This document shows positions 9,620-34,475 of a stretch of DNA of 64,000 bases, in pieces. The stretch is from an uncultured cyanobacterium (lineage in GTDB: Bacteria > Cyanobacteriota > Cyanobacteriia > Cyanobacteriales > CAWUOF01). The notes under the pieces are model-generated. The model saw nothing but the letters and a program-made list of their open reading frames with translations. It was not told the DNA's origin and made no database searches. The stretch is from NCBI GenBank assembly GCA_963744145.1, contig CAVUSO010000001.1, positions 6,176,001 to 6,240,000 on the forward strand, in the 5' to 3' direction. Numbering within the stretch: position 1 is the first letter of the stretch; every line of letters begins with the position of its first letter. The translations under genes and the position numbers were made by a program.

Positions 9620-9777
9620 AATTGTACCCTAACGGATGCGAGGTAATGCTGATTGTCCCGTAGGCGATCCAGTTCTCCGTCGCATATTTGCCGATCGCAG
9701 TTAATTGTTAGAGCAATCGAGTAGCGATCGCTCCACCCGATTTGGGTGTGGTGGTTTTTTTGGGGAGCGATCGCCAA
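9620..9777. repeat. 158-bp dispersed repeat, copy 1, ending in a HIP1-closed hairpin
   Basis: near-identical to 11550-11707. Confidence 0.85.
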
Positions 9778-9957
9778 TACCCTAACGGATACCAGAGGGA
9801 CGAATACAAATACGGCTTGGTTCCGGTTTGCGATCGCTCCAAATTCCCCCAGCACAAGGTCATTTAACTAGAAGCGATCGCTCTGGGCGCGACCTAATCT
9901 GTCCCAGAAGCGACCCACCGATCTGTCCCATGCCCCACCGATCTGTCCCAGGAGCAA

Positions 9958-11549: not shown

Positions 11550-11707
11550 AATTGTACCCTAACAGATGCGAGGTAATGCTGATTGTCCCGTAGGTGCTCC
11601 AGTTCTCCGTCGCATATTTGCCGATCGCAGTTAATTATTAGAGTAGTCGATTAGCGATCGCTCCACCCGATTTGGGTGTGGTGGTTTTTTTGGGGAGCGA
11701 TCGCCAA
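11550..11707. repeat. 158-bp dispersed repeat, copy 2
   Basis: near-identical to 9620-9777. Confidence 0.85.
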
Positions 11708-11944
11708 AATGTCTTTCACTACTTCCAGAACCATGTCTTATAAATGCGATCGCCCCAAATCCCCCCAATCACAAGACCATTCAACTAGAAGCGATCGCAC
11801 TACTCCCAGCACCAGGTCTTTTGAATGCGATCGCTCCAAATTCCCCCAGCACAAGGCCATTAAACTAGAAGCGATCGCTCTGGGCGACCTCATCAAACCA
11901 GTAGCGACCCACCGATCTGTCCCAGTATCAATTAAGCAAATAGC

Positions 11945-12075
11945 AAATATAAAGTTAACGTGAAGTGTAATTTACAGAGTTTTATATAGTATAGGGATTT
12001 TATCTTCGAGGAAATATAAAGTTTCTGTATCTTTAGAAAAACCTGTTGACAGGAATTTAATTATTTTTGTATTCT
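11945..12075 (+). promoter_or_regulatory. putative promoter of precursor 1
   Basis: AAATATAAAGTT at 11945 and 12012; TTGACA 12046-12051, 18 nt spacer, TATTCT 12070-12075; block conserved at 20431-20563. Confidence 0.6.
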
Positions 12076-12111
12076 TTTTTTATATGACCCCTATATTAAA
12101 GGTATTCAACA

Positions 12112-12276
12112 ATGTCAATTATCAAAAACACCAAGAAGCGCGTCGTCAAAGAAGAGAATAAAAGTCTGAGTCTCATGCTGTCGGAGTCCGATTCGGAGTC
12201 CGATTTGCTGTTGCTGTCGGAGTCCGATTTGCGGGCCGTGGTCGGCGGGAAGCAATTCAATGCCCAACGGGTATAG
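12112..12276 (+). CDS. double-glycine-leader precursor peptide 1 (54 aa; predicted core KQFNAQRV)
   Basis: MSIIKNTKKRVVKEENKSLSLMLSESDSESDLLLLSESDLRAVVGG|KQFNAQRV; paralogue of 20596-20721. Confidence 0.8.
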   Translation: MSIIKNTKKRVVKEENKSLSLMLSESDSESDLLLLSESDLRAVVGGKQFNAQRV

Positions 12277-12687
12277 TGGTAGGCATTAACAAGCAGAACC
12301 CCAAAAAAAATCAAACCAACCCATATTTAATATTCACTTCAAAAAAAGCAACAGAAGAAAGCTTCTTAAAATCCTAACCCATTAGATGAGTAGCGATCGC
12401 GCCAGATTGCGCGAGAAATAGATTAGGTACGCAAATCCTTTGTTTTAGGATTTCATTACCTGCCAAGGGGGGTATTCCCACGGGAGAACCGGGCCAAAGA
12501 TGCCTGTTTCTCCCTAGATTTTTTTAACAAATCAACAAAAATGTCATCTAAAATACAGAAATTCGGCAAAAAATCGTTCCAAGAGACAAGAATCCCTAGA
12601 AAAACGCAAAAATCGCTAAAAATAGGAATAATGATTTAAAAAAACCATCATAAATTTAGGACTAAAACAATTAGCCAAAATAAATTT

Positions 12688-13446
12688 TTAAGCAACAGCC
12701 ATAATTTCGGGATTAGTTTCTAACCAAAGTTCCCAAAATCTTTGTGCTTCATCATCTTTTTTCTTCGGTGTTTTTTTGAGAGAGTTTTGGTTTTCTTTTC
12801 CGGGTTTCCTTTCCCGACTTTTTGAAGGAGTTTTAGTTAATTTTGGCAATAAACTATTTCCCCAAAAAAACCTTTTTGGAGATTTGGATTTCGGTTGATA
12901 TTGATGACAAAAACCCTGATATTTCCTCGCACAATCATCCAAAGTTTCACCCAAAGTCAAAAAAGCCGGATGCCAAGTGGTTAACCCATCATCCCCTAAT
13001 CTTTCATAAACACCATAATTAGAAAAATCATAGAAAAAATCCTGTTGCATTCCCGCAGCTTTGGGATTAGCGTGGATGTACCTCAAAGTATTTAAAGCGC
13101 GTTTTCGATCAGCATTAGAAAAACTGGTAGCATTATATCTTTTTTCCCAGAAGCTTGTGGTGAGCGAAGTCGAACCATGCCCAGTCCGGTTAAGCATTCG
13201 GTTAAAACACATAGCAGAATACCAATTAATTAAGTGCATAATTTTCGGTAAATCTTCAGCTTTTTGTGGTTCAATTAAATAATGAATGTGATTAGACATA
13301 ATACATAAACCATAAAGTTTGAAATCATATTTCTCTATGGTTTTTTTGAGAATATAAAGAAAGACTTGGCGACATTCTAGACGCATTAAGCGAAATTCAC
13401 GATTATTGCATCGAGTAGTAATATGATAAGAAAAGTGATGAGACAT
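12688..13446 (-). mobile_element. REP-associated tyrosine transposase (RAYT, Y1 HUH family)
   Basis: YHITTRCNNRE, MSNHIHYL (HUH), FWEKRY, RYIHANP (catalytic Tyr); in-frame 24-nt insertion at 13153-13176. Confidence 0.85.
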
Positions 13447-13603
13447 AAATAATGGTCTTTCTCGCTGGTTGCTTATGTGGAAAAGCTTTATCGTTAAGTA
13501 TACCGTTTATGGTAGACAGCGAGCGATCGCCGACTTCGTGGGAGTTGGAGATTGTCATCAATAAATATGGACCTTGGCAGGCTTTTTATTCCTTAGAATT
13601 ATT

Positions 13604-15232
13604 ATGGTAAACGCTCAAGATAACAAAAACAAAGAGAGGATTTTCCGGGCTGAATCTTTAGAACGCTTATCCTCACCAGAACGTCTTGACCAACTGATGC
13701 AGGTACTAGCACCCTTAGATTGGCTGATCTTGGTAGTTTTTAGTGGTTTGGGAATTTTAGGTGTCGGTTGGAGTATTCTTGGTCGCATTCCAATTACGGT
13801 CGAAGGTAAGGGGATATTTATGCAACCTCGACAAGTTGTTGAGCTTCAGTCGGCGATTAGTGGACAGTTAAAGTCTTTAAATGTCAGTAATGGTAAGTGT
13901 TTTAAAAAAGATGAAGTATTGGCTACTGTCGAGCCGCTCGAACTCCAAAATCAGTTAAAATTGTCGCAAGAAAAACTAGCTCAGTTACAGAAACAAGATT
14001 TAGAAGCAACGCTAATATTAAGCCAAAGGATGACCTTAGAAAAAACTACGATCGCGGCTAGTCAAATTAGCTTACAAAAACGGTTACAAGATGCTCAAAA
14101 TTTAACCCCGATTCTCAAGGAAAAAAGTACCGATGCGATCGGGAAACAAAAATTAAGTTTACAGCAACGATTACAGGATACAAAAGCCTTTACTCCAGCA
14201 CTGAAAGAAAAGGGATTAACAGCGATCGCTCAACAGCGAATTAGTCTGCAACAAAGATTAAAAGATGCGGAAAAGATTGCCGTTGTGCTGCAACAAAAAT
14301 TTCAGCGACATAGCGAACTTGCTAAAAGTGGAGGTATATCAATAGACTCAGTATTACAGGTAGAACAAGAATATCAAGAAGGAGTTCAGAAAATAGCCGA
14401 TCTCCAAGCTCAATTAAAACAACTGGATCTCACGGAAACTCAAACTGAGCAAACCTACCAAGATAGTGTTAATAAAATTGGCGAAATGCAAGCCCAGTTA
14501 CAAGATTTGGAAGTGCAAAGTGTAAAAACTGAGCGGGAATATTTAGATAATCTGCGCTCAATTAGTGATACTGAATCTCAGTTGCAAGAACTAGATACTA
14601 AAAATAAACGACTAGATCAAGAAACTCTAGAAACGTCAACTCAACGGAAAAAAGAACTCCAAGAAGTTCAGCGAGAAATTAGTAAGATTCAGGAACAAAT
14701 AACTAACAACAGTAGGATTTTAAGCTCTCAAGATGGCTGTATTTTAGAATTAACTGCTACTTTGGGGCAAGTGGTGCAACCTAGCAGTAAATTGGGTAGT
14801 ATCCGGGTAGGAAATGAGGAAAATCTCGGGCAAGCAATGGCTTATTTTCAGATTAAAGATGGTAAGCAAATCAAACCGAAGATGTTGATTCATGTAACAC
14901 CAGATACCTTACAAAGAGAGCGTTTTGGTGGTATTGTGGGTGAAGTGACTGCGGTTTCTGCTCTCCCCGTAACTCCCGAAGGAACCGTAGCTATGATCGG
15001 CAATTCCCAAATTGTCAAAAATCTAATTGGGGAGGGAGGAACAGCGATCGAAATTACTGCCAAATTGACGACAGACCCCCACAATCCTAGCGGTTATAAG
15101 TGGTCTTCCTCTCAAGGTCCAGACTCGCCGATTACATCAGGAACTACAGCAACAGTAAGGGTCACAATTGAAGAAAGAGCGCCAATTACTTTTGTTTTAC
15201 CTTTCTTACGGGAATTAGTTGGTACTAAATAA
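13604..15232 (+). CDS. NHLM bacteriocin-system secretion protein (HlyD-family adaptor)
   Basis: IFRAESLERLSSPERLDQLM, one TM helix, long coiled coil, RERFGGIVG, YKWSSSQGP, ERAPITFVLP. Confidence 0.9.
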   Translation: MVNAQDNKNKERIFRAESLERLSSPERLDQLMQVLAPLDWLILVVFSGLGILGVGWSILGRIPITVEGKGIFMQPRQVVELQSAISGQLKSLNVSNGKCFKKDEVLATVEPLELQNQLKLSQEKLAQLQKQDLEATLILSQRMTLEKTTIAASQISLQKRLQDAQNLTPILKEKSTDAIGKQKLSLQQRLQDTKAFTPALKEKGLTAIAQQRISLQQRLKDAEKIAVVLQQKFQRHSELAKSGGISIDSVLQVEQEYQEGVQKIADLQAQLKQLDLTETQTEQTYQDSVNKIGEMQAQLQDLEVQSVKTEREYLDNLRSISDTESQLQELDTKNKRLDQETLETSTQRKKELQEVQREISKIQEQITNNSRILSSQDGCILELTATLGQVVQPSSKLGSIRVGNEENLGQAMAYFQIKDGKQIKPKMLIHVTPDTLQRERFGGIVGEVTAVSALPVTPEGTVAMIGNSQIVKNLIGEGGTAIEITAKLTTDPHNPSGYKWSSSQGPDSPITSGTTATVRVTIEERAPITFVLPFLRELVGTK

Positions 15233-15240
15233 CTAAAAAA

Positions 15241-17472
15241 ATGCGATCGATGATGCAATGGTTCAAAAACTTCATCAACTCCAGAGAAAAACCTGAATAC
15301 GCCAACATTCGCGTTAAAACTCCTACTCTATTGCAGATGGAAGCAACTGAATGTGGTGCGGTGGCTTTAGGAATTATATTGAGCTATTACCGACGAATTG
15401 TTTCCTTACCAGAACTGCGAATTGGTTGCGGTGTTTCCCGTGATGGTGCTAACGCTTGGAACCTACTCAAAGCTGCTAAAAGCTATGGGATGATTGCCGA
15501 TGGGTTTAAGAGCGAAATCGATACCCTGCAAAAGATTGAGCCGCCTTATATTGTGTTTTGGAACTTCAATCATTTTCTAGTTGTAGAAGGTTTTGTGGGG
15601 CATCGGGTCTATCTCAATGACCCAGCAACTGGCCCCCGGCGCGTGACCATCCAGGAGTTTGATGAAGGTTTTACAGGTGTGGTTTTGATCATGGAACCCG
15701 GACCTGACTTTGCCGAATGTGGACAAAATCCCAGTATAATTGGTGCTTTATATTCACGTCTGAAAAATTCTTGGTCGGAACTATTATTTTGTATTATTAT
15801 CGGTTTTTTATTGGTAATCCCTAGTTTAGCACTGGCTGCAATGAGCCAGGTATTTGTTGATAATGTGCTGATTCAAAAGCACTACGAATGGCTAAAACCT
15901 CTTTTGCTAGGAATGGGTGGACTCTTATTTTTGCAAGCATTAATGACTTTGCTACGATTGCGAAAACTGAGATATTTGAATTTGCGCTTATCGATCAGCA
16001 TGACAGGGCAGTTTTTGTGGCATATATTGCATTTACCTGTAGAGTTCTACGCCCAACGTTTTGCAGGTGAAATTAGTAACCGAATTGGAATTAATAGTAA
16101 AGTAGCAGGGGTACTGTCGGGACAGTTGGCAAGAACTGTGATTGACGGGGTGATGATCTTTTTCTACGGCGCTGCGATGTTTGCTTATGATTGGGTGCTG
16201 ACCCTAATGGGAATAGTTGGGGTGGCGGTGGATATTATTTTTGTCCGGTTGATGTCTCGCCACTGGACTGATTTGAGTATGAGAATATCCCAGGATGGTG
16301 GGAAGTTAGCCGGGGTTGAAATTGCAGCTTTGCAAAGTATCGAAACAATTAAAGCAGGAGCTTTGGAGTCAGATTATTTTGCTCGTTGGGCCGGATATTA
16401 TGCGAAGCTAACCACAGCCCAACAGGAAATGAGCCAAAATCAACAATGGGTATCTCTGTTACCGTCTCTGGTGTCTTCTTTGATTTCAATGTCGGTGTTG
16501 GTGATGGGAGGGATACGGGTGATTGATGGACACCTGACCATTGGGATGTTAATTGCTTTTCAGGGGTTGATGGGGCGGTTTCAAGATCCTGTAAATACTT
16601 TAGTGAGCTTGGGAACGACAATTCAGACGTTGGATGGGGATATGAAACGCTTAGATGATGTATTGCGCCATCCCCTAGACCCTAGCTCTAATCAAGCCAC
16701 TCCTACTTGGTCTGCTGATCGCTATCGCTTGCAAGGATATGTAGAACTTCGTAATATTACTTTTGGCTATAGTCATGTGAATCCGCCACTAATTGAAAAT
16801 TTCAGTTGTAGACTGGAACCAGGGCAACGGGTGGCTTTTGTCGGTAGTAGTGGTTCGGGCAAATCTACACTATCGAAACTGATTACAGGATTGTATACAT
16901 CTTGGGAGGGGGAGATTTTATTTGATGGTTTATCCCGACAGAAAATTCCTCGTTCGGTAATGGCAAATTCTCTGGCACTGGTGGAACAGGAAATTTTTCT
17001 GTTTGAGGGAACAATTAGGGAAAATTTGACTCTTTGGGATGAAACAATTCCTGATCAGCAGTTAATTAGAGCTTGTCAAGATGCAGAAATTTTAGATGTA
17101 GTTATGGCAATTCCTGGTGGATTGGATGGAAAATTACTCGAAGCTGGAGCCAATTTGAGTGGAGGACAGCGCCAAAGGTTAGAAATTGCTCGCGCTTTAG
17201 TTCATAATCCGGCAATTTTGGTAATGGATGAGGCTACTTCGGCTTTGGATGCTCAAACAGAAAAGCGGATTGATCGAAATTTACGACGACGGGGTTGTAC
17301 TTGCATTATTGTTGCCCATCGTCTGAGTACAATTCGCGATTGTGATGAAATTATTGTGTTGGAACGAGGTAAAGTGGTGCAACGCGGCACCCATGAGTCA
17401 ATGAAGAGAGAAGATGGTGTTTATGCGCGATTAATTGGGATGGGTTTGCATAGCGATATGGAACTAAACTGA
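15241..17472 (+). CDS. peptidase-containing ABC transporter (C39 + TMD + ATPase), NHLM type
   Basis: LQMEATECGA (catalytic Cys), WNFNHFLVV (His), GSSGSGKS, LSGGQRQR, DEATSALD. Confidence 0.93.
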   Translation: MRSMMQWFKNFINSREKPEYANIRVKTPTLLQMEATECGAVALGIILSYYRRIVSLPELRIGCGVSRDGANAWNLLKAAKSYGMIADGFKSEIDTLQKIEPPYIVFWNFNHFLVVEGFVGHRVYLNDPATGPRRVTIQEFDEGFTGVVLIMEPGPDFAECGQNPSIIGALYSRLKNSWSELLFCIIIGFLLVIPSLALAAMSQVFVDNVLIQKHYEWLKPLLLGMGGLLFLQALMTLLRLRKLRYLNLRLSISMTGQFLWHILHLPVEFYAQRFAGEISNRIGINSKVAGVLSGQLARTVIDGVMIFFYGAAMFAYDWVLTLMGIVGVAVDIIFVRLMSRHWTDLSMRISQDGGKLAGVEIAALQSIETIKAGALESDYFARWAGYYAKLTTAQQEMSQNQQWVSLLPSLVSSLISMSVLVMGGIRVIDGHLTIGMLIAFQGLMGRFQDPVNTLVSLGTTIQTLDGDMKRLDDVLRHPLDPSSNQATPTWSADRYRLQGYVELRNITFGYSHVNPPLIENFSCRLEPGQRVAFVGSSGSGKSTLSKLITGLYTSWEGEILFDGLSRQKIPRSVMANSLALVEQEIFLFEGTIRENLTLWDETIPDQQLIRACQDAEILDVVMAIPGGLDGKLLEAGANLSGGQRQRLEIARALVHNPAILVMDEATSALDAQTEKRIDRNLRRRGCTCIIVAHRLSTIRDCDEIIVLERGKVVQRGTHESMKREDGVYARLIGMGLHSDMELN

Positions 17473-17477
17473 ATTAG

Positions 17478-20198
17478 ATGTCAAACGGTCGAAATTTTAA
17501 TGGGTCTGAATTGGTAATAAATAGCAATAGCCCTTTCCCTCTCAACATACAGGATCGGGTTTTTTGCGTAAAATCTGGATTGATCGCAGTATTTGCGATC
17601 GCTACTACCAACAACATACCGCAAGGAGCAAGGCGCTATCTATTCGATGTGAGTCCAGGGGAGATTTTATTGGGAATAGCACCAATTTGGGAGGGCCGCT
17701 CCTACCAATTGATCGCTATAGCTTATGAAGAAACGCAATTAGTTTCGATTTCGCTGATCGATTGGATTAAGCAGACACCAGTAAGACCACATTTACAACA
17801 ATGGAGCGATCGCCTAGTGGGGGTTTTCCGAGAGGCATCTATTGATTTTAATGGTATTAAATCAGCACAGCTAGATGATCTGGAATCTCAGGGGGATACT
17901 GCTGAGGAGACATGGCATAAACTCCTAGACAACCTTCACTCTAACTTTTTATTTAGCTTAAACCAACTCGAACTAGAGGAAGCATCAATACAAGCCGAAC
18001 TATTTCGATCGCGTCTAAAACTCAAGGATACTGCAAAGGAAAAAGCATTAGGGAATCTTACTGCTGTTTTTCGATCCAAAAAAATCAAATCACCCCAAGC
18101 AGAAGAAACGACATTGTTAATGGCAGCGGGGGCTGTAGGACGGGCGATGGGGATAGAGATTCGTCCACCTGCAAAATCAGAAAATCTTCAGCGAGTTAGT
18201 GATCCACTATTGGCGATCGCCCGTGCTTCACGAATTCGCACCCGTCAGATCATTTTAAGCGGAAATTGGTGGCAGTTCGATTGTGGTCCAATCTTGGCTT
18301 ATTATCAAAGATCAGAAAATGAAAATGAAACTCCTGTTGCACTCCTACCAGCAGGTAGAAACCATTATGAAATTTTCGATCCTGAAACTCAGCGTCGTAT
18401 TCCCCTAAATCAGAAAACAGCTAAACATATCTCAATTGTAGCCTTTGTTTTCTATCGTTCTTTTCCTGAAAAAGTTCTGAAAGCAATTGATATCCTCAAA
18501 TTTGCCACCCAAGGTACTCTTCAAGAAGCAGCAATAATTTTGGGTTTGGGAGCTGTGGTTTCCTTGTTGGGAATGCTGACACCCCAAGTAACAGGTATTT
18601 TAATCGATCATGCTATTCCTAGTGGCGATCGCGGTTTAATTTGGCAATTAGCACTGGGTTTATTAGCAGTTAGTTTTGGCACTATATTGTTAGATTTAGT
18701 CGAGGGCGTCGCGACGATTCGTTTACAAACATTAGCCGAAATTCAGACAGAAGCTGCTACTTGGGATCGACTCCTGAAATTACCTCCCAATTTCTTTCGT
18801 CAGTTTTCCCTCGGCGATCTGCAAATGCGGCTTTCTGGAATTACCTATCTCCACCAAATCCTTAGCAGCACTTTAATAGGAACTATTTTTCACAGTTTTT
18901 TTGCACTGTTAAATTTAGGGTTGCTGCTTTTTTATAATTTTCAATTAGCTTTAGTAGCGATCGCGATCGCCCTGCTGAATACATTAGTAACAATAGCTTC
19001 CTATTTTATCTCCCGTCAAAGTATAGCTGAAAACAAACAATTAAGCGGAGAAATCTTTGGACTGATGGTGCAATTAATCGCCGGGATATCAAAACTACGG
19101 GTAGCGGATGCAGAGGAGAGGGCTTTTGCCCATTGGTCGAAAAAATTTGGTCAGCAACAAGAAATGATGGTAAACATGGCTGCTGTCCAAGATTGGGTGA
19201 CGCTATTTAATACGATTTTGCCAACGATTAGCTCGATTTTAGTTTACGGGTTGGGCGTAGTGCTGATTACCGAAGCCCAGACTCACGGACAGACCGGGTT
19301 TTCAACAGGAACATTTTTGGCATTTAATGCAGCATTCGGCACTTTTGTAGGTGGTGTAACTGGTTTGAGTAATGCCTTTGTGAATACAATGCAAGTCTCA
19401 ATTATCTGGAAGCGGATTCAGCCGATTTTGGTGGAAAAAACGGAGGTTGATCAGAATAAAAATGATCCGGGAAGACTAACAGGTGAGGTTAAGATTGATC
19501 ATGTTAGTTTCCGCTATGGGAAAGATAGCCCATTAATCTTAAATCAGGTGACAATAGAGGCTAAACCGGGTGAATTTATCGCTTTAGTTGGTCCTTCCGG
19601 TAGTGGTAAGTCAACCATTGTCAGATTACTATTAGGGTTCGAGCAACCTGAACAGGGAAAGGTTTATTATGATCGTCAGGACTTGACTAACTTAGATATT
19701 TTAGCAGTACGACGACAGTTGGGAGTGATGTTACAGGATGGCAAGATTAATAGCGCTTCGATTTTTGAGAATATTTCTGGTGGTGCTTTAGTAACAATGG
19801 ATGAGGCTTGGGAAGCCGCCAGAATGGCTGGTTTTGCCTCGGATATTCAGGAATTCCCGATGGGGATGTATACAGTAATTTCGGAAGGGGGGACGAATAT
19901 TTCAGGGGGACAGCGCCAACGGTTATTAATAGCGCGATCGCTTGTGTTAAAGCCAAAGATTTTGATTTTTGACGAAGCGACGAGTGCTTTAGATAATCAA
20001 ACACAGACGATTATCAGTGAAAGTTTGAATAGTTTGCAAGTAACTCGGATTATTATTGCTCACCGTTTGAGTACAATTCGTTATGCTGATCGAATTTATG
20101 TAATTGTCGCAGGGAAAGTTGTACAGCAGGGCAATTTTGAGGAATTGATGGCACAATCAGGAATGTTTGCTGATTTAATGGCGCGACAATTGGTTTAG
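17478..20198 (+). CDS. NHLM bacteriocin-system ABC transporter, partner without a peptidase domain
   Basis: WWQFDCGPILA, TMD, GPSGSGKS, ISGGQRQR, DEATSALD. Confidence 0.9.
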   Translation: MSNGRNFNGSELVINSNSPFPLNIQDRVFCVKSGLIAVFAIATTNNIPQGARRYLFDVSPGEILLGIAPIWEGRSYQLIAIAYEETQLVSISLIDWIKQTPVRPHLQQWSDRLVGVFREASIDFNGIKSAQLDDLESQGDTAEETWHKLLDNLHSNFLFSLNQLELEEASIQAELFRSRLKLKDTAKEKALGNLTAVFRSKKIKSPQAEETTLLMAAGAVGRAMGIEIRPPAKSENLQRVSDPLLAIARASRIRTRQIILSGNWWQFDCGPILAYYQRSENENETPVALLPAGRNHYEIFDPETQRRIPLNQKTAKHISIVAFVFYRSFPEKVLKAIDILKFATQGTLQEAAIILGLGAVVSLLGMLTPQVTGILIDHAIPSGDRGLIWQLALGLLAVSFGTILLDLVEGVATIRLQTLAEIQTEAATWDRLLKLPPNFFRQFSLGDLQMRLSGITYLHQILSSTLIGTIFHSFFALLNLGLLLFYNFQLALVAIAIALLNTLVTIASYFISRQSIAENKQLSGEIFGLMVQLIAGISKLRVADAEERAFAHWSKKFGQQQEMMVNMAAVQDWVTLFNTILPTISSILVYGLGVVLITEAQTHGQTGFSTGTFLAFNAAFGTFVGGVTGLSNAFVNTMQVSIIWKRIQPILVEKTEVDQNKNDPGRLTGEVKIDHVSFRYGKDSPLILNQVTIEAKPGEFIALVGPSGSGKSTIVRLLLGFEQPEQGKVYYDRQDLTNLDILAVRRQLGVMLQDGKINSASIFENISGGALVTMDEAWEAARMAGFASDIQEFPMGMYTVISEGGTNISGGQRQRLLIARSLVLKPKILIFDEATSALDNQTQTIISESLNSLQVTRIIIAHRLSTIRYADRIYVIVAGKVVQQGNFEELMAQSGMFADLMARQLV

Positions 20199-20430
20199 TT
20201 TTCAAAATCTCAGCTTTGGAAATATATATCTGAGTTAGCGATCGCTCTCACCCCCACAATTTGTCTCAGTAGCGACCTATCTATCTGCTCCAGTATCGAT
20301 TTAGTAGCAACCGAAACAGAATTTATTAGTTTCTTTTATTACTTGTAAGCTATTAATTGATTTATCGCTAATAGAATAATATTGTGATTCATATCACGGT
20401 TATAATCAATACGCATCACAATACTAATAT

Positions 20431-20563
20431 AAATATAAAGTTAATGTGAAGTATGATTTATAGAGTTTTAAGGGATTATCGGGATTTTATCTTCGAGGAA
20501 ATATAAAGTTTCTGTGAGTTTAAGGAAAGTGTATTGACTATTGATTAATTATTTTTGTATCTT
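20431..20563 (+). promoter_or_regulatory. putative promoter of precursor 2
   Basis: AAATATAAAGTT at 20431 and 20499; TTGACT 20534-20539, 18 nt spacer, TATCTT 20558-20563; paralogous to 11945-12075. Confidence 0.6.
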
Positions 20564-20595
20564 TTTGATTATCAAAAGAAAAAGAGTATTCAACA

Positions 20596-20721
20596 ATGTT
20601 AATTACCAACAAAACCAAGAAGCGCGTCGTCAAGGAAGAGAATAAGGGGATTAGTCAGTTGTCGGAGTCCGATTTGCGGGGCGTCGTGGGGGGTCAGTAC
20701 AAGAACTGGAAAACTACATAG
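20596..20721 (+). CDS. double-glycine-leader precursor peptide 2 (41 aa; predicted core QYKNWKTT)
   Basis: MLITNKTKKRVVKEENKGISQLSESDLRGVVGG|QYKNWKTT. Confidence 0.82.
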   Translation: MLITNKTKKRVVKEENKGISQLSESDLRGVVGGQYKNWKTT

Positions 20722-20828
20722 AAATTGATTCGGTACACAAATTCAATGGTTAGGAATTTCACAAGCTTTTCTAATTACCGATAATTGCAACGCAAACCAA
20801 TTGTTAATAATCAAAGGAGAATAATACT

Positions 20829-20987
20829 ATGGCTAATAACCAAAAAGGGAAGAAAATTATACAAGACAAGTCAGCATCAGCATCCAGTTTGCTTCCTGAT
20901 GGTATTCAATTTTTGTCGGAGTCTGCTCTTGTGGGTGTTGTGGGGGGAGGTCCTAACTTGCAAAGAGGCAAGATTATCGAATTATAA
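20829..20987 (+). CDS. double-glycine-leader precursor peptide 3 (52 aa; predicted core GPNLQRGKIIEL)
   Basis: AAAGGAG RBS; MANNQKGKKIIQDKSASASSLLPDGIQFLSESALVGVVGG|GPNLQRGKIIEL. Confidence 0.8.
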   Translation: MANNQKGKKIIQDKSASASSLLPDGIQFLSESALVGVVGGGPNLQRGKIIEL

Positions 20988-21264: not shown

Positions 21265-21675
21265 ATGGCAAATTTAACGGGTGCTAATTTAAGTGAAACT
21301 AATATAACTTCAGCAAATTTAACAGGAGCAGATTTGACTAAAGCTAATTTACAAAATGCTCAATTGAATCAAGTAGTATTTAATAATAATAAATTAATAG
21401 AAGTCTGTTTACTAGGAGCAAAAATTGTCAATACTAAGTTAAAGGGATTAGACTTAACCAAAGCGAATTTATGTGGTACTAATCTAAGTAATTTAGATAT
21501 GACTGAGGCAAATTTAACTTCTGCTAATTTAGTCGGAGCAAATCTACAAGGTGCCAATCTAGAAAGGGCTAACTTAAAAGAAGCAAACTTAACTGGTGCT
21601 AATCTGAAAAATGCCAAATTAAATGGTGCTATTCTAACTGGTGCAATTATGCCCGATGGGTCAATTCATGAATAG
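21265..21675 (+). pseudogene. pentapeptide-repeat protein, probably 5'-truncated
   Basis: ANLTG repeats ending GAIMPDGSIHE; repeats continue upstream to about 21175 and break at HIP1-rich DNA. Confidence 0.7.
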
Positions 21676-21809: not shown

Positions 21810-23281
21810 CAATACGGTTCGGTTAAGCTTTAAGCAGTATTGAGGATAGAAAAATTGAGGGTTTCATGTTTAACTCCCTGACCTCTATGAATTGGTTTCT
21901 TGGATGGAAATTTGGCGCGAGTTTTTTTAATAACACGAGGGTTACTTCTACCTTCACGTTTGGGAATTGGTTCATCCAAAATTTCCCTGATCAACCAACT
22001 AAAAAAAAGGGGAAATTCTTCTGGTTGAAGGCGCTGAAATTTGGGAATAGCACGACGGACAACATTGAGAGTACCAGTAAAACTCAATCGTAAAGGGGAG
22101 ATGTGAGCAGAGGTGGCCGCGGTCAACATGAGAGAACGAACCGCCCAATGTCCGAGGAGCCAACCATAAATTTCCTGAACCACTTCACGGGGATGAAGAG
22201 AACGAATCAGAGTTTTACGTCCCAATTGATGAACCTTCAATTCATCGATAGTATTTTCAACTTCCCAACGACGATGATATTCTGTGGCTAATAATAAAGC
22301 TGGAAATAAAGCGATGTCCGTCAAACTGGTAATCAGACGGTAAGTTTGTGCTTCGCCATTATCAATAGTGTATTCAATGACTCGAACCATAATTTTGGTC
22401 ATGCCCTGTTTTTTCGACTTGCCGTCGGGAGCAATCCAGGAGAGATAGGAACCATCATCCAATACCTGCTCCACAGGAAATTTAACATTTTTGGGGATGC
22501 GTCCCAAATAATCACATTTTTGGGACAAGGTGGCTTGCACCATTGCATAAGAATGCAATCCACGATCCCACATTAATAACATTCCAGTGGTGACTGACCG
22601 TAGTAACCTTTTCACTCTGACTCGCTCACCGATTCGGTAAGGGCAGATCAAGGCATCTACAATTAAATGTGTTCCTGCTTCAATCAATAGAACCAAACGC
22701 ACCTTGGGAAACGCGGCTCTAGTTCCAGGACGACTAGCTGGATATCCAAATACTCTGGCATTTGTGTCGCTATCTGGCACATCAAACACTGTTCCATCTA
22801 CAGCCATAATTCGCTTTTCACCTAAAAAAGCCCCTGGGGTTTCCCTAGTAGCCTGTGGTCTAACTACTATGTGAAACAGATGCCGCATTACCCCTGCACC
22901 TACTCGCTGTCTAGCTTCTGTAATTGATGATTTACATGGTATTCGCCAATAATAACTAACTCTGACCCATGCTTCATTTAAGCCATCAACCAGATTTTTC
23001 AACACTGTCCTCATTGACCCCCTAGACCATAGACTCATCCCAATGATTAGACAGATAACCAGATGCGTTGGTAATGCTCTTTGTCGTTCCTCTTTTCTAT
23101 TGGTATCTTCAATGGCTTTTTCAATTGCTGTCGATGGAATCGCTGTTTCTAACGCTTTGAGGATCATCCCTGATTCGACCACAGGTGATATTACAGTGAA
23201 TTCTTTGAGCTGCATTCCTACTCATTCCATTTAGGTGACACTTTCATTTTACCTGATTTTTAGCTTAACCGAACCGTATTG
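21810..23281 (-). mobile_element. complete IS4-family insertion sequence
   Basis: 19-bp TIRs CAATACGGTTCGGTTAAGC (21810-21828 / 23263-23281); 10-bp target duplication GCCCCAATCC (21800-21809, 23282-23291). Confidence 0.93.
21830..23215 (-). CDS. IS4-family DDE transposase
   Basis: MAVDGT, LMWDRG, YHRRWEVENTIDELK (YREK motif). Confidence 0.93.
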   Translation of the reverse strand: MQLKEFTVISPVVESGMILKALETAIPSTAIEKAIEDTNRKEERQRALPTHLVICLIIGMSLWSRGSMRTVLKNLVDGLNEAWVRVSYYWRIPCKSSITEARQRVGAGVMRHLFHIVVRPQATRETPGAFLGEKRIMAVDGTVFDVPDSDTNARVFGYPASRPGTRAAFPKVRLVLLIEAGTHLIVDALICPYRIGERVRVKRLLRSVTTGMLLMWDRGLHSYAMVQATLSQKCDYLGRIPKNVKFPVEQVLDDGSYLSWIAPDGKSKKQGMTKIMVRVIEYTIDNGEAQTYRLITSLTDIALFPALLLATEYHRRWEVENTIDELKVHQLGRKTLIRSLHPREVVQEIYGWLLGHWAVRSLMLTAATSAHISPLRLSFTGTLNVVRRAIPKFQRLQPEEFPLFFSWLIREILDEPIPKREGRSNPRVIKKTRAKFPSKKPIHRGQGVKHETLNFSILNTA

Positions 23282-24330: not shown

Positions 24331-24902
24331 ACAAACCGTGTCAGAAACTGGTATTACTTGTACTGGTGGAGCTTTAATGCAATAGTCGAAGGTGATATTT
24401 GCGATCGCTCTCATCCAACTCTGAAAAATGCGATCGCCCCCATTACCCAGTATTATTCTCTCGTGAAGGTCTGAAATATTTCAAACCTTTTGCCGTGAGC
24501 CCAGTCGAATAGTTGCACATCCATCGGCAGCCAGTATCGCACCAGCACAAATATACCACCCCGAAAATGTGATCGCCCAAATATCCCCATCGACCAGATA
24601 GCAGGACGATCATATTGCAACTAGACTTCAGAATAGCGATCGCTCTCCACCCGTCTCAACTGCGATCGCACCCAGTAGAATCAGAGTCTAATTTCCTGAG
24701 AAATGCGATCGCTCATATCAACGCGAAATTATTATTCTTCCATCAAATTTTGAAATAATTCGTAAACTGATAACCAAAAGTGGTTAATTTTTGATTTTAT
24801 TTATTAACTATAGAAAAATATTAAGAAATGTAATTGCGAAGTAAAAACCTATTAAAAATTATGTAGTATTGGTAATCAAAGAAAAATATCCGAGGTAAAA
24901 CC

Positions 24903-25835: not shown

Positions 25836-26245
25836 TGTGTTTTTATTCTAACTAAAGGGAAGAAGATGAACTTGCGATCGCACCTATCCAGACCAACAAA
25901 AGCGATCGCACCCGTATCCAGACCAACAAGTGCATCGCACCCATACCCATATCAACAAAATGCGATCGCCCAAATTATCAGTTAGTGATTATTCTCTTAT
26001 CAAGGTTTAAATAACTTCAAAAGTTTCTCAAAATCAGCCATTTTGACTGGAATAGCGATCGCACTTTCCCAATATTATCTCAATTGCGATCGCACCAATC
26101 ATTTCCCTTTCATGTTCCACTTCTCCCACATTTGCCGATTGAAAGGCGATCGCTCTCCACCCGTCACAACTGCGATCGCACCTCACCGAATATGGACAAC
26201 TGAGAAATATGGGTAATTAAGGAATTACCCGATTCACCAAAATGA

Positions 26246-32132: not shown

Positions 32133-34475
32133 GTGATGAAAATCCATTTTTCCTCTTATTTAACAGCATTATCCGCGCTTCTACTTGTCCTGACAGGTGT
32201 TTGGTTTGTAGATAAAACCCAACAAGAACGATTTCAACAGCAAAATCGTGCCGATGTTCTCCATCAACTCAGTACAGTTCGGGCTCGACTTGAAGGTGCC
32301 TTAGATTCCCGGTTATTTTTATTACGTGGTCTGGTGGCTTTTATTTCCAACTATACCGATGTTGATCAGGTAGAATTTGAAGACTTGGCCAAAATTATCA
32401 TTGCCTACCAAACAGGGATTGACAGTATTTATTTAGCTAAAAATACTGTGGTAACTAATATTTACCCACCCCAAAAAAAAGCGGCTTTGGGGCAAAAGCT
32501 CATGGAAGAATCAGTCCAGAGACAGGGGATTCAACAAGCGATTGAGCATAAAAAAACTACGATTACTGGTCCAGTTAAAACCGCAACTGGTAGGGTAATT
32601 TTTGTGGGTAATACCCCGATTTTTCTTACTCCTCGTGGAAAAGAGCCTGAAAGTGGTGATTATTGGGGTTTAGCAGGAATCGGAATTGATCGGACTACCT
32701 TGATGAAAGAAGCAGGAATGTTAAATCCCCTGGTTAAAATTGATTATGGACTGCGGGTACATGATTCTTTATCTAATTCAGAGCGGATGTTGTTTGGACA
32801 AGAAAAGATTTTTTATGAAGATCCAGTTTTATTAGATGTGTCTTTACCGAACGGTTGGTGGCAATTGGCTGCAATTCCCCTAGATGGATGGCCATCTAAT
32901 TATCCCCATCAATGGTGGGTGCAAAATGGGGGTGTTTTGTTGGCTTTATTAACTGGAATTATTGTGTTTAGATTGGTTAATGCCCCTTTCTATTTGCGCG
33001 AAGCGATCGCTCAGGCAACATCTACTTTAAATGCTAATGAAGCTAAGTATCGTGAACTGGTGGAAAATGCTAATAGTATTATTTTGCGGATCGATCATCA
33101 GGGGAATATTACTTTTTTTAATGAATTTGCTCAAGGTTTTTTTGGGTATTCAGAACAGGAAATTATTGGTAAAAACATCATCGGGACAATTATGGCCCAG
33201 GTTGATGGGGCTGGAAAAGATTTGGGGGTAATGCTAATCAATTGCTTACAAAATCCCGCACAATATACTAGCTATGAAAATGAAAATATTCGTCGTAATG
33301 GTGAACGAGTTTGGATTTCTTGGACAAATAAAGCACTGTTAGATCACCAGGGAATATTTCGCGGTATATTATGTATTGGGACGGATATTAGCGATCGCAA
33401 ATGGGCAGAGCAAGAGTTACAAAGAGCTAATGAAGAATTAGAAACCCGAGTTGAGGAACGGACTACAGAATTAAAACAAAAAGCTTTCCAACTAGAAACA
33501 GCTTTGCATCAACTTCAACTAACTCAAACTCAATTAGTTCACTCTGAAAAAATGTCTAGTCTCGGACAATTGATTGCAGGGATTGCCCATGAAATCAATA
33601 ATCCGGTTAATTTTATTCACGGCAATCTTTCTTATATTATTGATTATACTCAAGACTTTTTGAAATTAATTAATGTCTATCAACAGGAATATTCTCAGAC
33701 TAATCCCCGGATTGAAGCAGTTTTAGAAGAAATTGAGTGGGATTTTATTCGGGAAGATTTAGGCAAAATTGTGTCTTCTATGCAAATCGGTACGGAACGA
33801 ATCCGTCAAATTGTGCTATCTTTAAGAAATTTTTCTCGTTTAGATGAATCAGATATGAAACCGGTGGATATTCATGAGGGGATTGAAAGTACCTTATTAA
33901 TTTTACAAAACCGTCTGAAACCTCATCATAGTGTGACTGATATTCAGATTATTAAGGAATATGGTGATTTGCCTTTAGTAGAATGCTATGCTGGTCAATT
34001 AAATCAAGTATTTATGAATATCCTTAGTAATGCTCTTGATGCTTTACAGACGAAAAGATTTAATTATCTACAAGTCAATTTGGCAGCAATTGAGCAACAA
34101 ATGATTCCAGCTAAACCAGACGAGGGTAGAACTGAAGAAGCAATAAATCAGGAAAGAGGAAATTCAGATTATCCCCAATTTGATCTACCCACAATTCGGA
34201 TTCGGACTAAAGTGATGGATAGCGATCGGATCAGAATTGAAATTGCTGATAATGGGATGGGGATGACCGAGGAAATCAAAAATAATATTTTTAATCCCTT
34301 TTTTACGACTAAAGATGTGGGTAAAGGAACTGGGTTAGGTTTATCCATCAGTTATCAAATTGTGGTGGAAAAGCACTTAGGTGAATTGCAGTGTCGATCA
34401 GCTCCAGAGCTAGGCACACTATTCATAATTGAATTGCCCAGGAAATGTGTCCGGACTCTGGCAGTTCAGAAGTAG
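32133..34475 (+). CDS. membrane sensor histidine kinase (CHASE, PAS, HisKA, HATPase)
   Basis: two TM helices around a CHASE-like domain, PAS, AHEINNP, NQVFMNILSNA, GKGTGLGL. Confidence 0.92.
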   Translation: MMKIHFSSYLTALSALLLVLTGVWFVDKTQQERFQQQNRADVLHQLSTVRARLEGALDSRLFLLRGLVAFISNYTDVDQVEFEDLAKIIIAYQTGIDSIYLAKNTVVTNIYPPQKKAALGQKLMEESVQRQGIQQAIEHKKTTITGPVKTATGRVIFVGNTPIFLTPRGKEPESGDYWGLAGIGIDRTTLMKEAGMLNPLVKIDYGLRVHDSLSNSERMLFGQEKIFYEDPVLLDVSLPNGWWQLAAIPLDGWPSNYPHQWWVQNGGVLLALLTGIIVFRLVNAPFYLREAIAQATSTLNANEAKYRELVENANSIILRIDHQGNITFFNEFAQGFFGYSEQEIIGKNIIGTIMAQVDGAGKDLGVMLINCLQNPAQYTSYENENIRRNGERVWISWTNKALLDHQGIFRGILCIGTDISDRKWAEQELQRANEELETRVEERTTELKQKAFQLETALHQLQLTQTQLVHSEKMSSLGQLIAGIAHEINNPVNFIHGNLSYIIDYTQDFLKLINVYQQEYSQTNPRIEAVLEEIEWDFIREDLGKIVSSMQIGTERIRQIVLSLRNFSRLDESDMKPVDIHEGIESTLLILQNRLKPHHSVTDIQIIKEYGDLPLVECYAGQLNQVFMNILSNALDALQTKRFNYLQVNLAAIEQQMIPAKPDEGRTEEAINQERGNSDYPQFDLPTIRIRTKVMDSDRIRIEIADNGMGMTEEIKNNIFNPFFTTKDVGKGTGLGLSISYQIVVEKHLGELQCRSAPELGTLFIIELPRKCVRTLAVQK

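Follow-up and report, generated by a model that had tools for sequence, protein, structure and literature searches.

Short double-glycine peptide genes with hypervariable predicted cores beside an NHLM-type export cassette in an uncultured cyanobacterium

The 64,000-nucleotide stretch analysed here (the window, positions 6176001-6240000 of contig C1 in the 7.7 Mb genome G000, which consists of 4 contigs) carries three small open reading frames (ORFs), pep1, pep2 and pep3, which bracket the genes of an export cassette: an HlyD-type adaptor, an ATP-binding cassette (ABC) exporter with a C39 peptidase domain (ABC1) and a second ABC protein (ABC2). Our analysis indicates that the three ORFs are genuine precursor genes of a small, previously unmodelled double-glycine (Gly-Gly) family, probably serving a self-contained, type-I-like export module as its dedicated cargo, with cores that would act outside the cell. 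A sequence-only reading of this DNA had described three plus-strand ORFs of 54, 41 and 52 amino acids (aa), with the same leaders and cores, flanking the cassette, and all of this was found again when the sequence was re-read; missing from that reading was an IS200/RAYT-like transposase gene that separates pep1 from hlyD.

The leaders of the three peptides end in LSES(D/A)L..VVGG. Searching the whole genome with a profile of the leader returned four ORFs at E ≤ 1e-15 (next best E = 0.11), three of which lie within 1.3 kb of the cassette, and the occurrence of the leader family at the cassette is not a matter of chance. The fourth ORF, the orphan paralogue pep4, has none of the genome's five C39 matches nearby. 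In all four paralogues the 12 residues before the predicted cut site read LSES(D/A/E)L..VVGG, and the V-V-G-G codons vary at third positions in every copy (n = 4), indicating that the protein motif is under purifying selection. A tandem duplication of 12 nucleotides (nt) at 12181-12205 (SESD SESD) marks the pep1 leader. The DNA of pep1 and pep2 is ~87% identical over the aligned upstream 200 nt and 90% identical in the leader, and just 8 of 24 nt are identical in the cores. As had been proposed, the leaders are short and of neither Nif11 nor NHLP type, since pep1-3 gave no match to TIGR03793 (NHLP) or TIGR03798 (Nif11) at E ≤ 0.1. The same threshold returned no match to TIGR01847 (bacteriocin_sig), a model that pep4 and the family member P0004 also fail, and none of the three peptides reached the cut-off of any Pfam or NCBIfam model. 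The predicted cores, described earlier as tiny, Cys-free and mutually unrelated, are indeed so, at 8-12 aa in the window; those of pep1 and pep3 contain no Cys, Ser or Thr, and that of pep2 contains two Thr and no Cys. Taken from their sequences, pep1-3 can be regarded as genuine double-glycine precursor genes tied to the exporter.

This tie is also seen in related genomes. Of 301 genomes from the order, 73 (the window genome counted) contain an ABC1 orthologue at E ≤ 1e-200, and 20 kb around the 20 best orthologues were scanned. The four closest loci (G469, G534, G482 and G547, with ABC1 ~80% identical) all belong to family f19, and each carries exactly one small ORF directly 3' of ABC1, so that the proposed linkage of double-glycine precursors to the transporter holds in 4/4 genomes. 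Whole-genome searches found a single peptide copy in each of them, and within the family the peptide is present in 4 of 11 genomes, the same four that possess an ABC1 orthologue. The f19 leader reads MK(A/V)RNSKIEQKNL(S/E)AKEA(Q/K)V(E/M)ELSE(E/D)QL(A/T)AVSGG and is followed by the cores RDRAIKK, ASGKGSEARVRRLR, AAPGHL and SVRIRS (6-14 aa). In G469 the module is surrounded by chemotaxis-like genes, cyclase genes and a Phd/PIN pair, in G534 it adjoins NdhN and ribosomal protein genes, and of seven genes neighbouring it in the window not one was found again at the four closest loci. Since the neighbours differ between genomes, the conserved unit consists of HlyD, ABC1, the peptide and ABC2; the orientation of ABC2 relative to ABC1 is convergent in f19 and co-directional in the window.

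The variability of the core across relatives, which had been put forward for checking, was measured by pairwise identities in a DNA alignment of the four f19 loci. The 102-nt leader DNA is identical at 91-99 positions (89-97%), whereas the first 15 nt after the Gly-Gly codons agree at only 4-7 positions (mean identity 0.39). Identity returns to 0.79-0.91, among three genomes, in the 70 nt following the stop region, and this conserved 3' flank contains a hairpin and then a U-run resembling a terminator (-22.9 kcal/mol, z -2.9). In the adjacent ABC1 gene, identity is 0.934-0.952 over all nucleotides and 0.87-0.90 at third codon positions; were the core drifting at the third-position rate, the probability of at most seven matches in 15 would be P ≤ 2e-4 per pair, the pairs being non-independent. 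The f19 core therefore evolves several times as fast as silent sites close by, with both flanks held, a signature of diversifying selection or allele replacement rather than of a meaningless tail or a decaying gene. No co-varying hypervariable segment was found in HlyD, ABC1 or ABC2 of the f19 genomes, the N-terminal ~140 aa of ABC2 being merely less conserved (0.53-1.00 per 30-aa window).

The exporter itself is of the NHLM type, as the sequence-only reading had it: TIGR03794, TIGR03796 and TIGR03797 are all matched above their curated cut-offs by contiguous ORFs on the plus strand. In ABC2, the N-terminal 215 aa (a domain of ~210 aa) resembled nothing in Pfam or NCBIfam, even when matches up to E ≤ 5 were admitted. 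The peptidase domain of ABC1 spans approximately residues 27-155 (PF03412, 110.5 bits) with C38, H111 and D127, and it matches the double-glycine protease LahT150 (6MPZ) at 150 bits. Q32, C38, H111 and D127 align to LahT Gln21, Cys27, His101 and Asp117, as named in PMC6363468, and are invariant in 13 of 13 orthologues; the Cys and His noted earlier as intact are thus accompanied by the catalytic Asp and the oxyanion Gln of an active C39 double-glycine peptidase. For LahT150, the last 13-14 leader residues are reported to suffice, and the hydrophobic leader positions -4, -7 and -12 have been defined (PMC6363468); L-12, L-7, V-4, G-2 and G-1 occur in all four paralogues and in all four f19 orthologues. 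A predicted complex of C39 residues 20-165 with pep2 scored 0.67 (best of three controls 0.01) and passed a mark that 116 of 157 solved complexes, but also 2 of 215 mismatched pairs, attain. At least 70% of contacts were common to the runs, the partner had a predicted local distance difference test (pLDDT) value of at least 56, and peptide residues 26-35 were placed against C39 residues 35-39 and 110-112. Nevertheless, this pass may reflect likeness only, because similar complexes have been solved (6MPZ, 6V9Z).

Cleavage and export of pep1-3 are well supported by inference from these sequences and the model. Once translated, the peptides would dock in the C39 domain of ABC1 by the last 12 leader residues, the domain would cut after Gly-Gly, and a core of 8-12 residues, mostly cationic and Cys-free, would exit the cell, most likely linear and unmodified. 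Diversifying selection or cassette replacement acts on the core, with leader and flanks conserved. Because the core is hypervariable between a conserved leader and conserved flanks, the product probably has an extracellular target that itself changes fast, for which a strain-specific recognition or signal receptor is slightly favoured over a competitor.

Beyond f19, the family was followed in protein collections and in metagenomes. The collections hold P0004 and P0016, with a 29-aa core, P0007, with the core GGRR, and P0008 and P0017, with the cores GRRAVR and GRRALR, and the family has a close homologue whose name refers to an Oscillatoria metagenome-assembled genome (MAG). Twelve distinct family loci were counted, 10 of them with cores of 4-18 aa. 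One leader profile had no match at E ≤ 0.01 in 60 relatives, and seven weak matches (E 0.005-0.03) of another leader profile in 400 genomes of the phylum were set aside, the five readable ones being long Nif11-type precursors and the other two showing nothing. A degenerate DNA pattern for LSES.L..VVGG led to 28 metagenome loci, none of which belongs to the peptide family; in nine (L039, L044-L047, L056, L057, L059 and L061) the motif lies inside long ORFs after ordinary protein sequence, and a few are other double-glycine peptides. No RNA run was listed as containing the 9.2-kb stretch of the locus, and contigs from the one DNA run that contains it were identical. Judged by eye, 7 of the other 16 fetched loci (L099, L100, L101, L105, L106, L110 and L111) hold plausible double-glycine precursors, six of them with cores of 7-16 aa, so that short cores appear to recur around the NHLM cassette. 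At L099:1976-2618 and L100:2686-3003, orthologous NHLM cassettes from another cyanobacterial genus have 76-aa leaders and Arg/Trp-rich cores of 14-15 aa (GWARRAWR..) that, unlike those of the pep1-3 family, are conserved between species. As a separate observation, P0019 (from a cyanobacterial MAG), P0021, P0024, P0026, P0028 and P0029 are polyprotein-like precursors of 3-9 tandem units, each unit comprising a mini-leader (..ELSEEDLEAIVGG), then a few residues rich in Gly and Cys, and the conserved motif NHNETL.

Several points weigh against regarding pep1-3 as dedicated cargo of this kind. The ABC1 orthologues of G133 (73% identical) and G001 (71%; the only other member of the window genome's family, on a contig of 7.6 kb) show no such peptide, and the cassette can therefore serve other cargo. 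The family is tiny, since a profile search of 1.84 billion representatives yielded 18 proteins at E ≤ 0.001, eight of which are family members and three of these eight the window genome's own. P0027, a pep1 homologue from a contig of 915 nt, continues for 119 residues past Gly-Gly; by eye, its tail resembles shifting-frame translations of the stop-rich DNA downstream of pep1, and may be read as read-through. The curated double-glycine leader models are not reached by pep1-3, pep1 and pep3 matching no family at all and pep2 only TIGR04149, at 15.6 bits (cut-off 25). Next to the module, the window and the orthologous loci have no receptor or immunity gene in common, and the selection argument is based on four orthologues and ~15 nt. 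To our knowledge, no cargo of a peptidase-containing ABC transporter (PCAT) as short as 4-8 residues has been described. Finally, modification in trans is conceivable, a LanM gene and two YcaO genes lie elsewhere in the genome, and cassettes of this gene order are thought, for Prochlorococcus, to export LanM products made in trans (PMC3140520).

A more specific version of the preferred reading, possible in our view but rather doubtful, takes the cores as unmodified, strain-specific 'pherotype' peptides, that is, signals of 4-14 residues by which filamentous cyanobacteria would communicate for self/non-self or developmental purposes, with a four-gene plug-in module, diversity kept by selection and a receptor encoded elsewhere. 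If this is true, a Gram-negative phototroph would possess a pheromone system of the double-glycine/PCAT kind, and its products would be far shorter than those of the Gram-positive systems known to us.

Alternatively, the peptides could be peptides that ribosomes synthesise and that are modified after translation (RiPPs) of very small size, modified in trans before export; candidate modifications include dehydration by LanM, cross-linking of aromatic or Lys residues by a radical-SAM enzyme, and epimerisation. This seems unlikely. Its favourable points are that a stand-alone LanM has been proposed to work with such cassettes in Prochlorococcus MIT9313 (PMC3140520), that one LanM and two YcaO genes exist in the genome, that the LanM gene is directly preceded by a short-leader double-glycine peptide with a 9-aa Cys-free core, and that pep2 weakly resembles the radical-SAM-target leader model TIGR04149 (E 0.011, below cut-off). 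Nevertheless, LanM or YcaO chemistry has no substrate in the cores of pep1 and pep3, which lack Cys, Ser and Thr, the LanM cluster comes with an HlyD and a C39-ABC of its own, a conserved tailoring gene is absent from all five loci examined, and the cores vary in length and composition and so present no fixed motif for a site-specific enzyme. The absence of an adjacent modifier, noted before, was borne out near the window module and at the orthologous loci; of the ORFs with at least 110 aa in window positions 1-40000, none belongs to LanM, YcaO, radical-SAM or a comparable tailoring family.

The sequence-only reading had also allowed that true Nif11 or NHLP substrates elsewhere might account for the transporter, and this found no support in the rest of the genome. 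Two Nif11-model matches exist, both without a Gly-Gly end, and there is no NHLP match at cut-off. When every small ORF was scanned with position-specific scoring, 20 candidates emerged, five of them within 15 kb of an NHLM exporter, namely pep1-3, one upstream of LanM and one with a Cys-rich 21-aa core at 7.13 Mb. Each NHLM exporter thus has a double-glycine candidate nearby as local cargo. Besides ABC1, the genome encodes three further TIGR03796 exporters. The peptide directly upstream of the only LanM gene, MSAQKESKKSKSTKPETAKPDSSELSMVELDTIAGG followed by RAAQSAKSL, is encoded at G000:C1:5147563-5147715 (L028:1564-1716, plus strand), and its 9-aa core, with Ser and without Cys, would permit no lanthionine ring. 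The other, at G000:C1:7135225-7135452 (minus strand), is a GG/GA-type precursor with the Cys-rich core CACGDSVCPCYAQPTQPSNPF beside the third NHLM cassette, whose HlyD appears to be split into fragments.

A role as unmodified, bacteriocin-like toxins, whose cationic cores would kill or inhibit competitors and whose hypervariability would record an arms race, is comparably improbable. Many cores are rich in Arg and Lys (RDRAIKK, SVRIRS, GRRAVR, GGRR, ...ARVRRLR), fast evolution of the core fits antagonism, and NCBI/JGI name the f19 homologue 'bacteriocin' or 'bacteriocin-like protein'. However, that name stands on a 15-position leader model: the G547 allele is called 'bacteriocin' because it passes TIGR01847 (cut-off 15.7), as do P0005 (18.3 bits), P0007 (19.1 bits) and P0008 (16.4 bits). 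Cores of 4-12 residues are, furthermore, far shorter than the class II bacteriocins we are aware of. No immunity neighbour is conserved across the loci, and a small unrecognised immunity ORF may be present; the pentapeptide-repeat gene downstream of pep3 was considered as an immunity factor and rejected, as it has no homologue at any of the 20 orthologous loci.

That the peptides are truncated remnants of longer precursors, or by-products in which the tail has no meaning and the leader alone matters, for instance by regulating or priming the exporter, is very improbable: the long tail of P0027, the 29-aa core of P0004 and P0016, the mobile elements flanking the locus (the RAYT-like and IS4 genes) and the conservation of the leader in particular speak for it, but it is contradicted by the short cores at 10 of 12 family loci, by the stop within 6-14 codons and the conserved terminator in 4/4 orthologues, by a core divergence of ~60% where a neutral tail should differ by ~12% (from ABC1 third positions), and by the purifying selection on the leader motif in 4/4 paralogues.

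Table 1. Features of the pep locus and the paralogue pep4; coordinates are window positions unless a contig is given.
Feature	Position	Strand	Details
pep1 upstream region, shared with pep2	11945-12111	+	DNA alignment
pep1	12112-12276	+	54 aa; 46-aa leader ending LSESDLRAVVGG, predicted 8-aa core KQFNAQRV
IS200/RAYT-like Y1 transposase gene, between pep1 and hlyD	12688-13446	-	PF01797, 68.3 bits, above cut-off
HlyD-type periplasmic adaptor	13574-15232	+	TIGR03794, 321.6 bits (cut-off 156.2)
ABC1, C39 peptidase/permease/ATPase exporter	15241-17472	+	TIGR03796, 1090.1 bits (cut-off 853.3)
ABC2, second permease/ATPase without peptidase domain	17478-20198	+	TIGR03797, 936.4 bits (cut-off 709.4), residues 211-905
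pep2 upstream region	20381-20595	+	promoter-like site 20534-20563, same relative place as that of pep1
pep2	20596-20721	+	41 aa; 33-aa leader ending LSESDLRGVVGG, predicted 8-aa core QYKNWKTT
pep3	20829-20987	+	52 aa; 40-aa leader ending LSESALVGVVGG, predicted 12-aa core GPNLQRGKIIEL
Pentapeptide-repeat gene, after pep3	21265-21675		
IS4 transposase gene, after pep3	21830-23215		
pep4, orphan paralogue	C1:4972559-4972738		leader-profile match; predicted core RPDGAAAGPAPAGPAQAS

The regions upstream of the peptide genes offer some hints of regulation. A promoter-like site precedes pep1 at 12046-12075 (TTGACA, 18 nt, TATTCT; a consensus match from a promoter scan only), and in pep3 the ATG is preceded, at 8-9 nt, by AAGGAG, with a promoter-like site at 20758-20785. 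The 12-mer AAATATAAAGTT occurs twice upstream of pep1, at 11945 and 12012, and twice upstream of pep2, at 20431 and 20499; the pair was rejected as independent evidence of a binding site because it lies inside DNA duplicated between the two genes and because the genome holds 14 copies against ~6 expected. An element of ~85 nt is common to the upstream regions of pep2 (~20381-20465) and pep4 (C1:4972448-4972530) and is found nowhere else in the genome, suggesting that the two genes may be regulated in common; it contains TGTGA-N6-TCAC, which we take to resemble a CRP-type site.

Concerning the remainder of the window, the transposase gene between pep1 and hlyD, which scored 57 bits against NF047646 (under the cut-off of 80), is a mobile element outside the export module. 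The octamer GCGATCGC, the cyanobacterial HIP1 hallmark, is present in 90 copies against 0.41 expected. It forms clusters with a spacing of ~30-50 nt at 11654-11878, just upstream of pep1, and at 9724-9881, 24401-24712 and 25874-26179, of which only the part at 25874-25969 scores as a tandem array, with period 29. Two adjoining paralogous genes for putative Uma2-family restriction endonucleases lie on the minus strand at 424-1293 and 1372-2157.

Hundreds of cyanobacterial double-glycine precursors have been catalogued since 2011, and the products of most are unknown according to the authors of the catalogue (PMC3140520). The pep family could provide an unusually tractable entry point, with a four-gene module, apparently no tailoring step and predicted plain peptides of 6-12 residues that can be purchased and added to cultures. 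Natural core alleles differ completely while their surroundings are conserved, thereby providing built-in specificity controls. If the cores are signals, peptide pheromones would extend to cyanobacteria; if they are toxins, they would be among the smallest ribosomal ones.

Set against known systems, the locus is genuine and represents a variant, of narrow distribution, of a type already known. The NHLM three-gene cassette was described by Haft et al. 2010 (PMC2887384), and the cluster type has the gene order of the group V cyanobacterial bacteriocin clusters catalogued by Wang, Fewer & Sivonen 2011 (PMC3140520), which share the HlyD, the short C39-ABC, the second peptidase-less ABC and several small double-glycine precursors around the cassette. 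Group V precursors measure 28-151 aa, 16 of 37 fall outside both NHLP and N11P, and nine were unannotated (PMC3140520), so that, together with the homologue named 'bacteriocin' at NCBI, the novelty suggested by the sequence-only reading was overstated. In contrast to group V, the window leaders of 33-46 aa match neither TIGR03793 nor TIGR03798, and the window cores are 8-12 aa and Cys-free instead of rich in Cys, Ser, Thr and Gly. The Results and Discussion of the catalogue do not single out ultra-short cores or measure core variability, and no leader strings matching the pep family were found in its supplementary files as available (PMC3140520). A limited literature search found no description of this leader family, of cores of 4-8 residues, of measured hypervariability or of the self-contained four-gene module.

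In the streptococcal ComC/ComAB and BlpC/BlpAB systems, a small double-glycine precursor is likewise cut and exported by a C39-ABC protein, with a conserved leader, a strain-variable mature part of at least 17 aa and an adjacent cognate histidine kinase and response regulator. At the window module, however, no adjacent kinase or regulator is conserved, the nearest kinase to the peptide and exporter genes (32133-34475) being 11 kb away, the predicted cores of the pep family are 4-14 aa long, the host is Gram-negative, and the module includes an HlyD adaptor and a second ABC protein. With the LahT/ProcA system, the locus has in common the hydrophobic leader anchors at -4, -7 and -12, the identical catalytic residues (PMC6363468) and the pattern of a conserved leader with a hypervariable core, whereas ProcA-type leaders are long and Nif11-like and their cores are Cys-containing LanM substrates; in the window the leader is short, with many K and N residues, and lanthionines cannot form in two of the three cores. 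EbfG1-4/PteB of Synechococcus elongatus, small secreted proteins with the GG motif that take part in biofilm development in a non-antibiotic role (PMC4997328), are set apart by the abstract's description of them as small proteins rather than micro-peptides, and share with the pep family the character of small cyanobacterial secreted products bearing GG secretion motifs.

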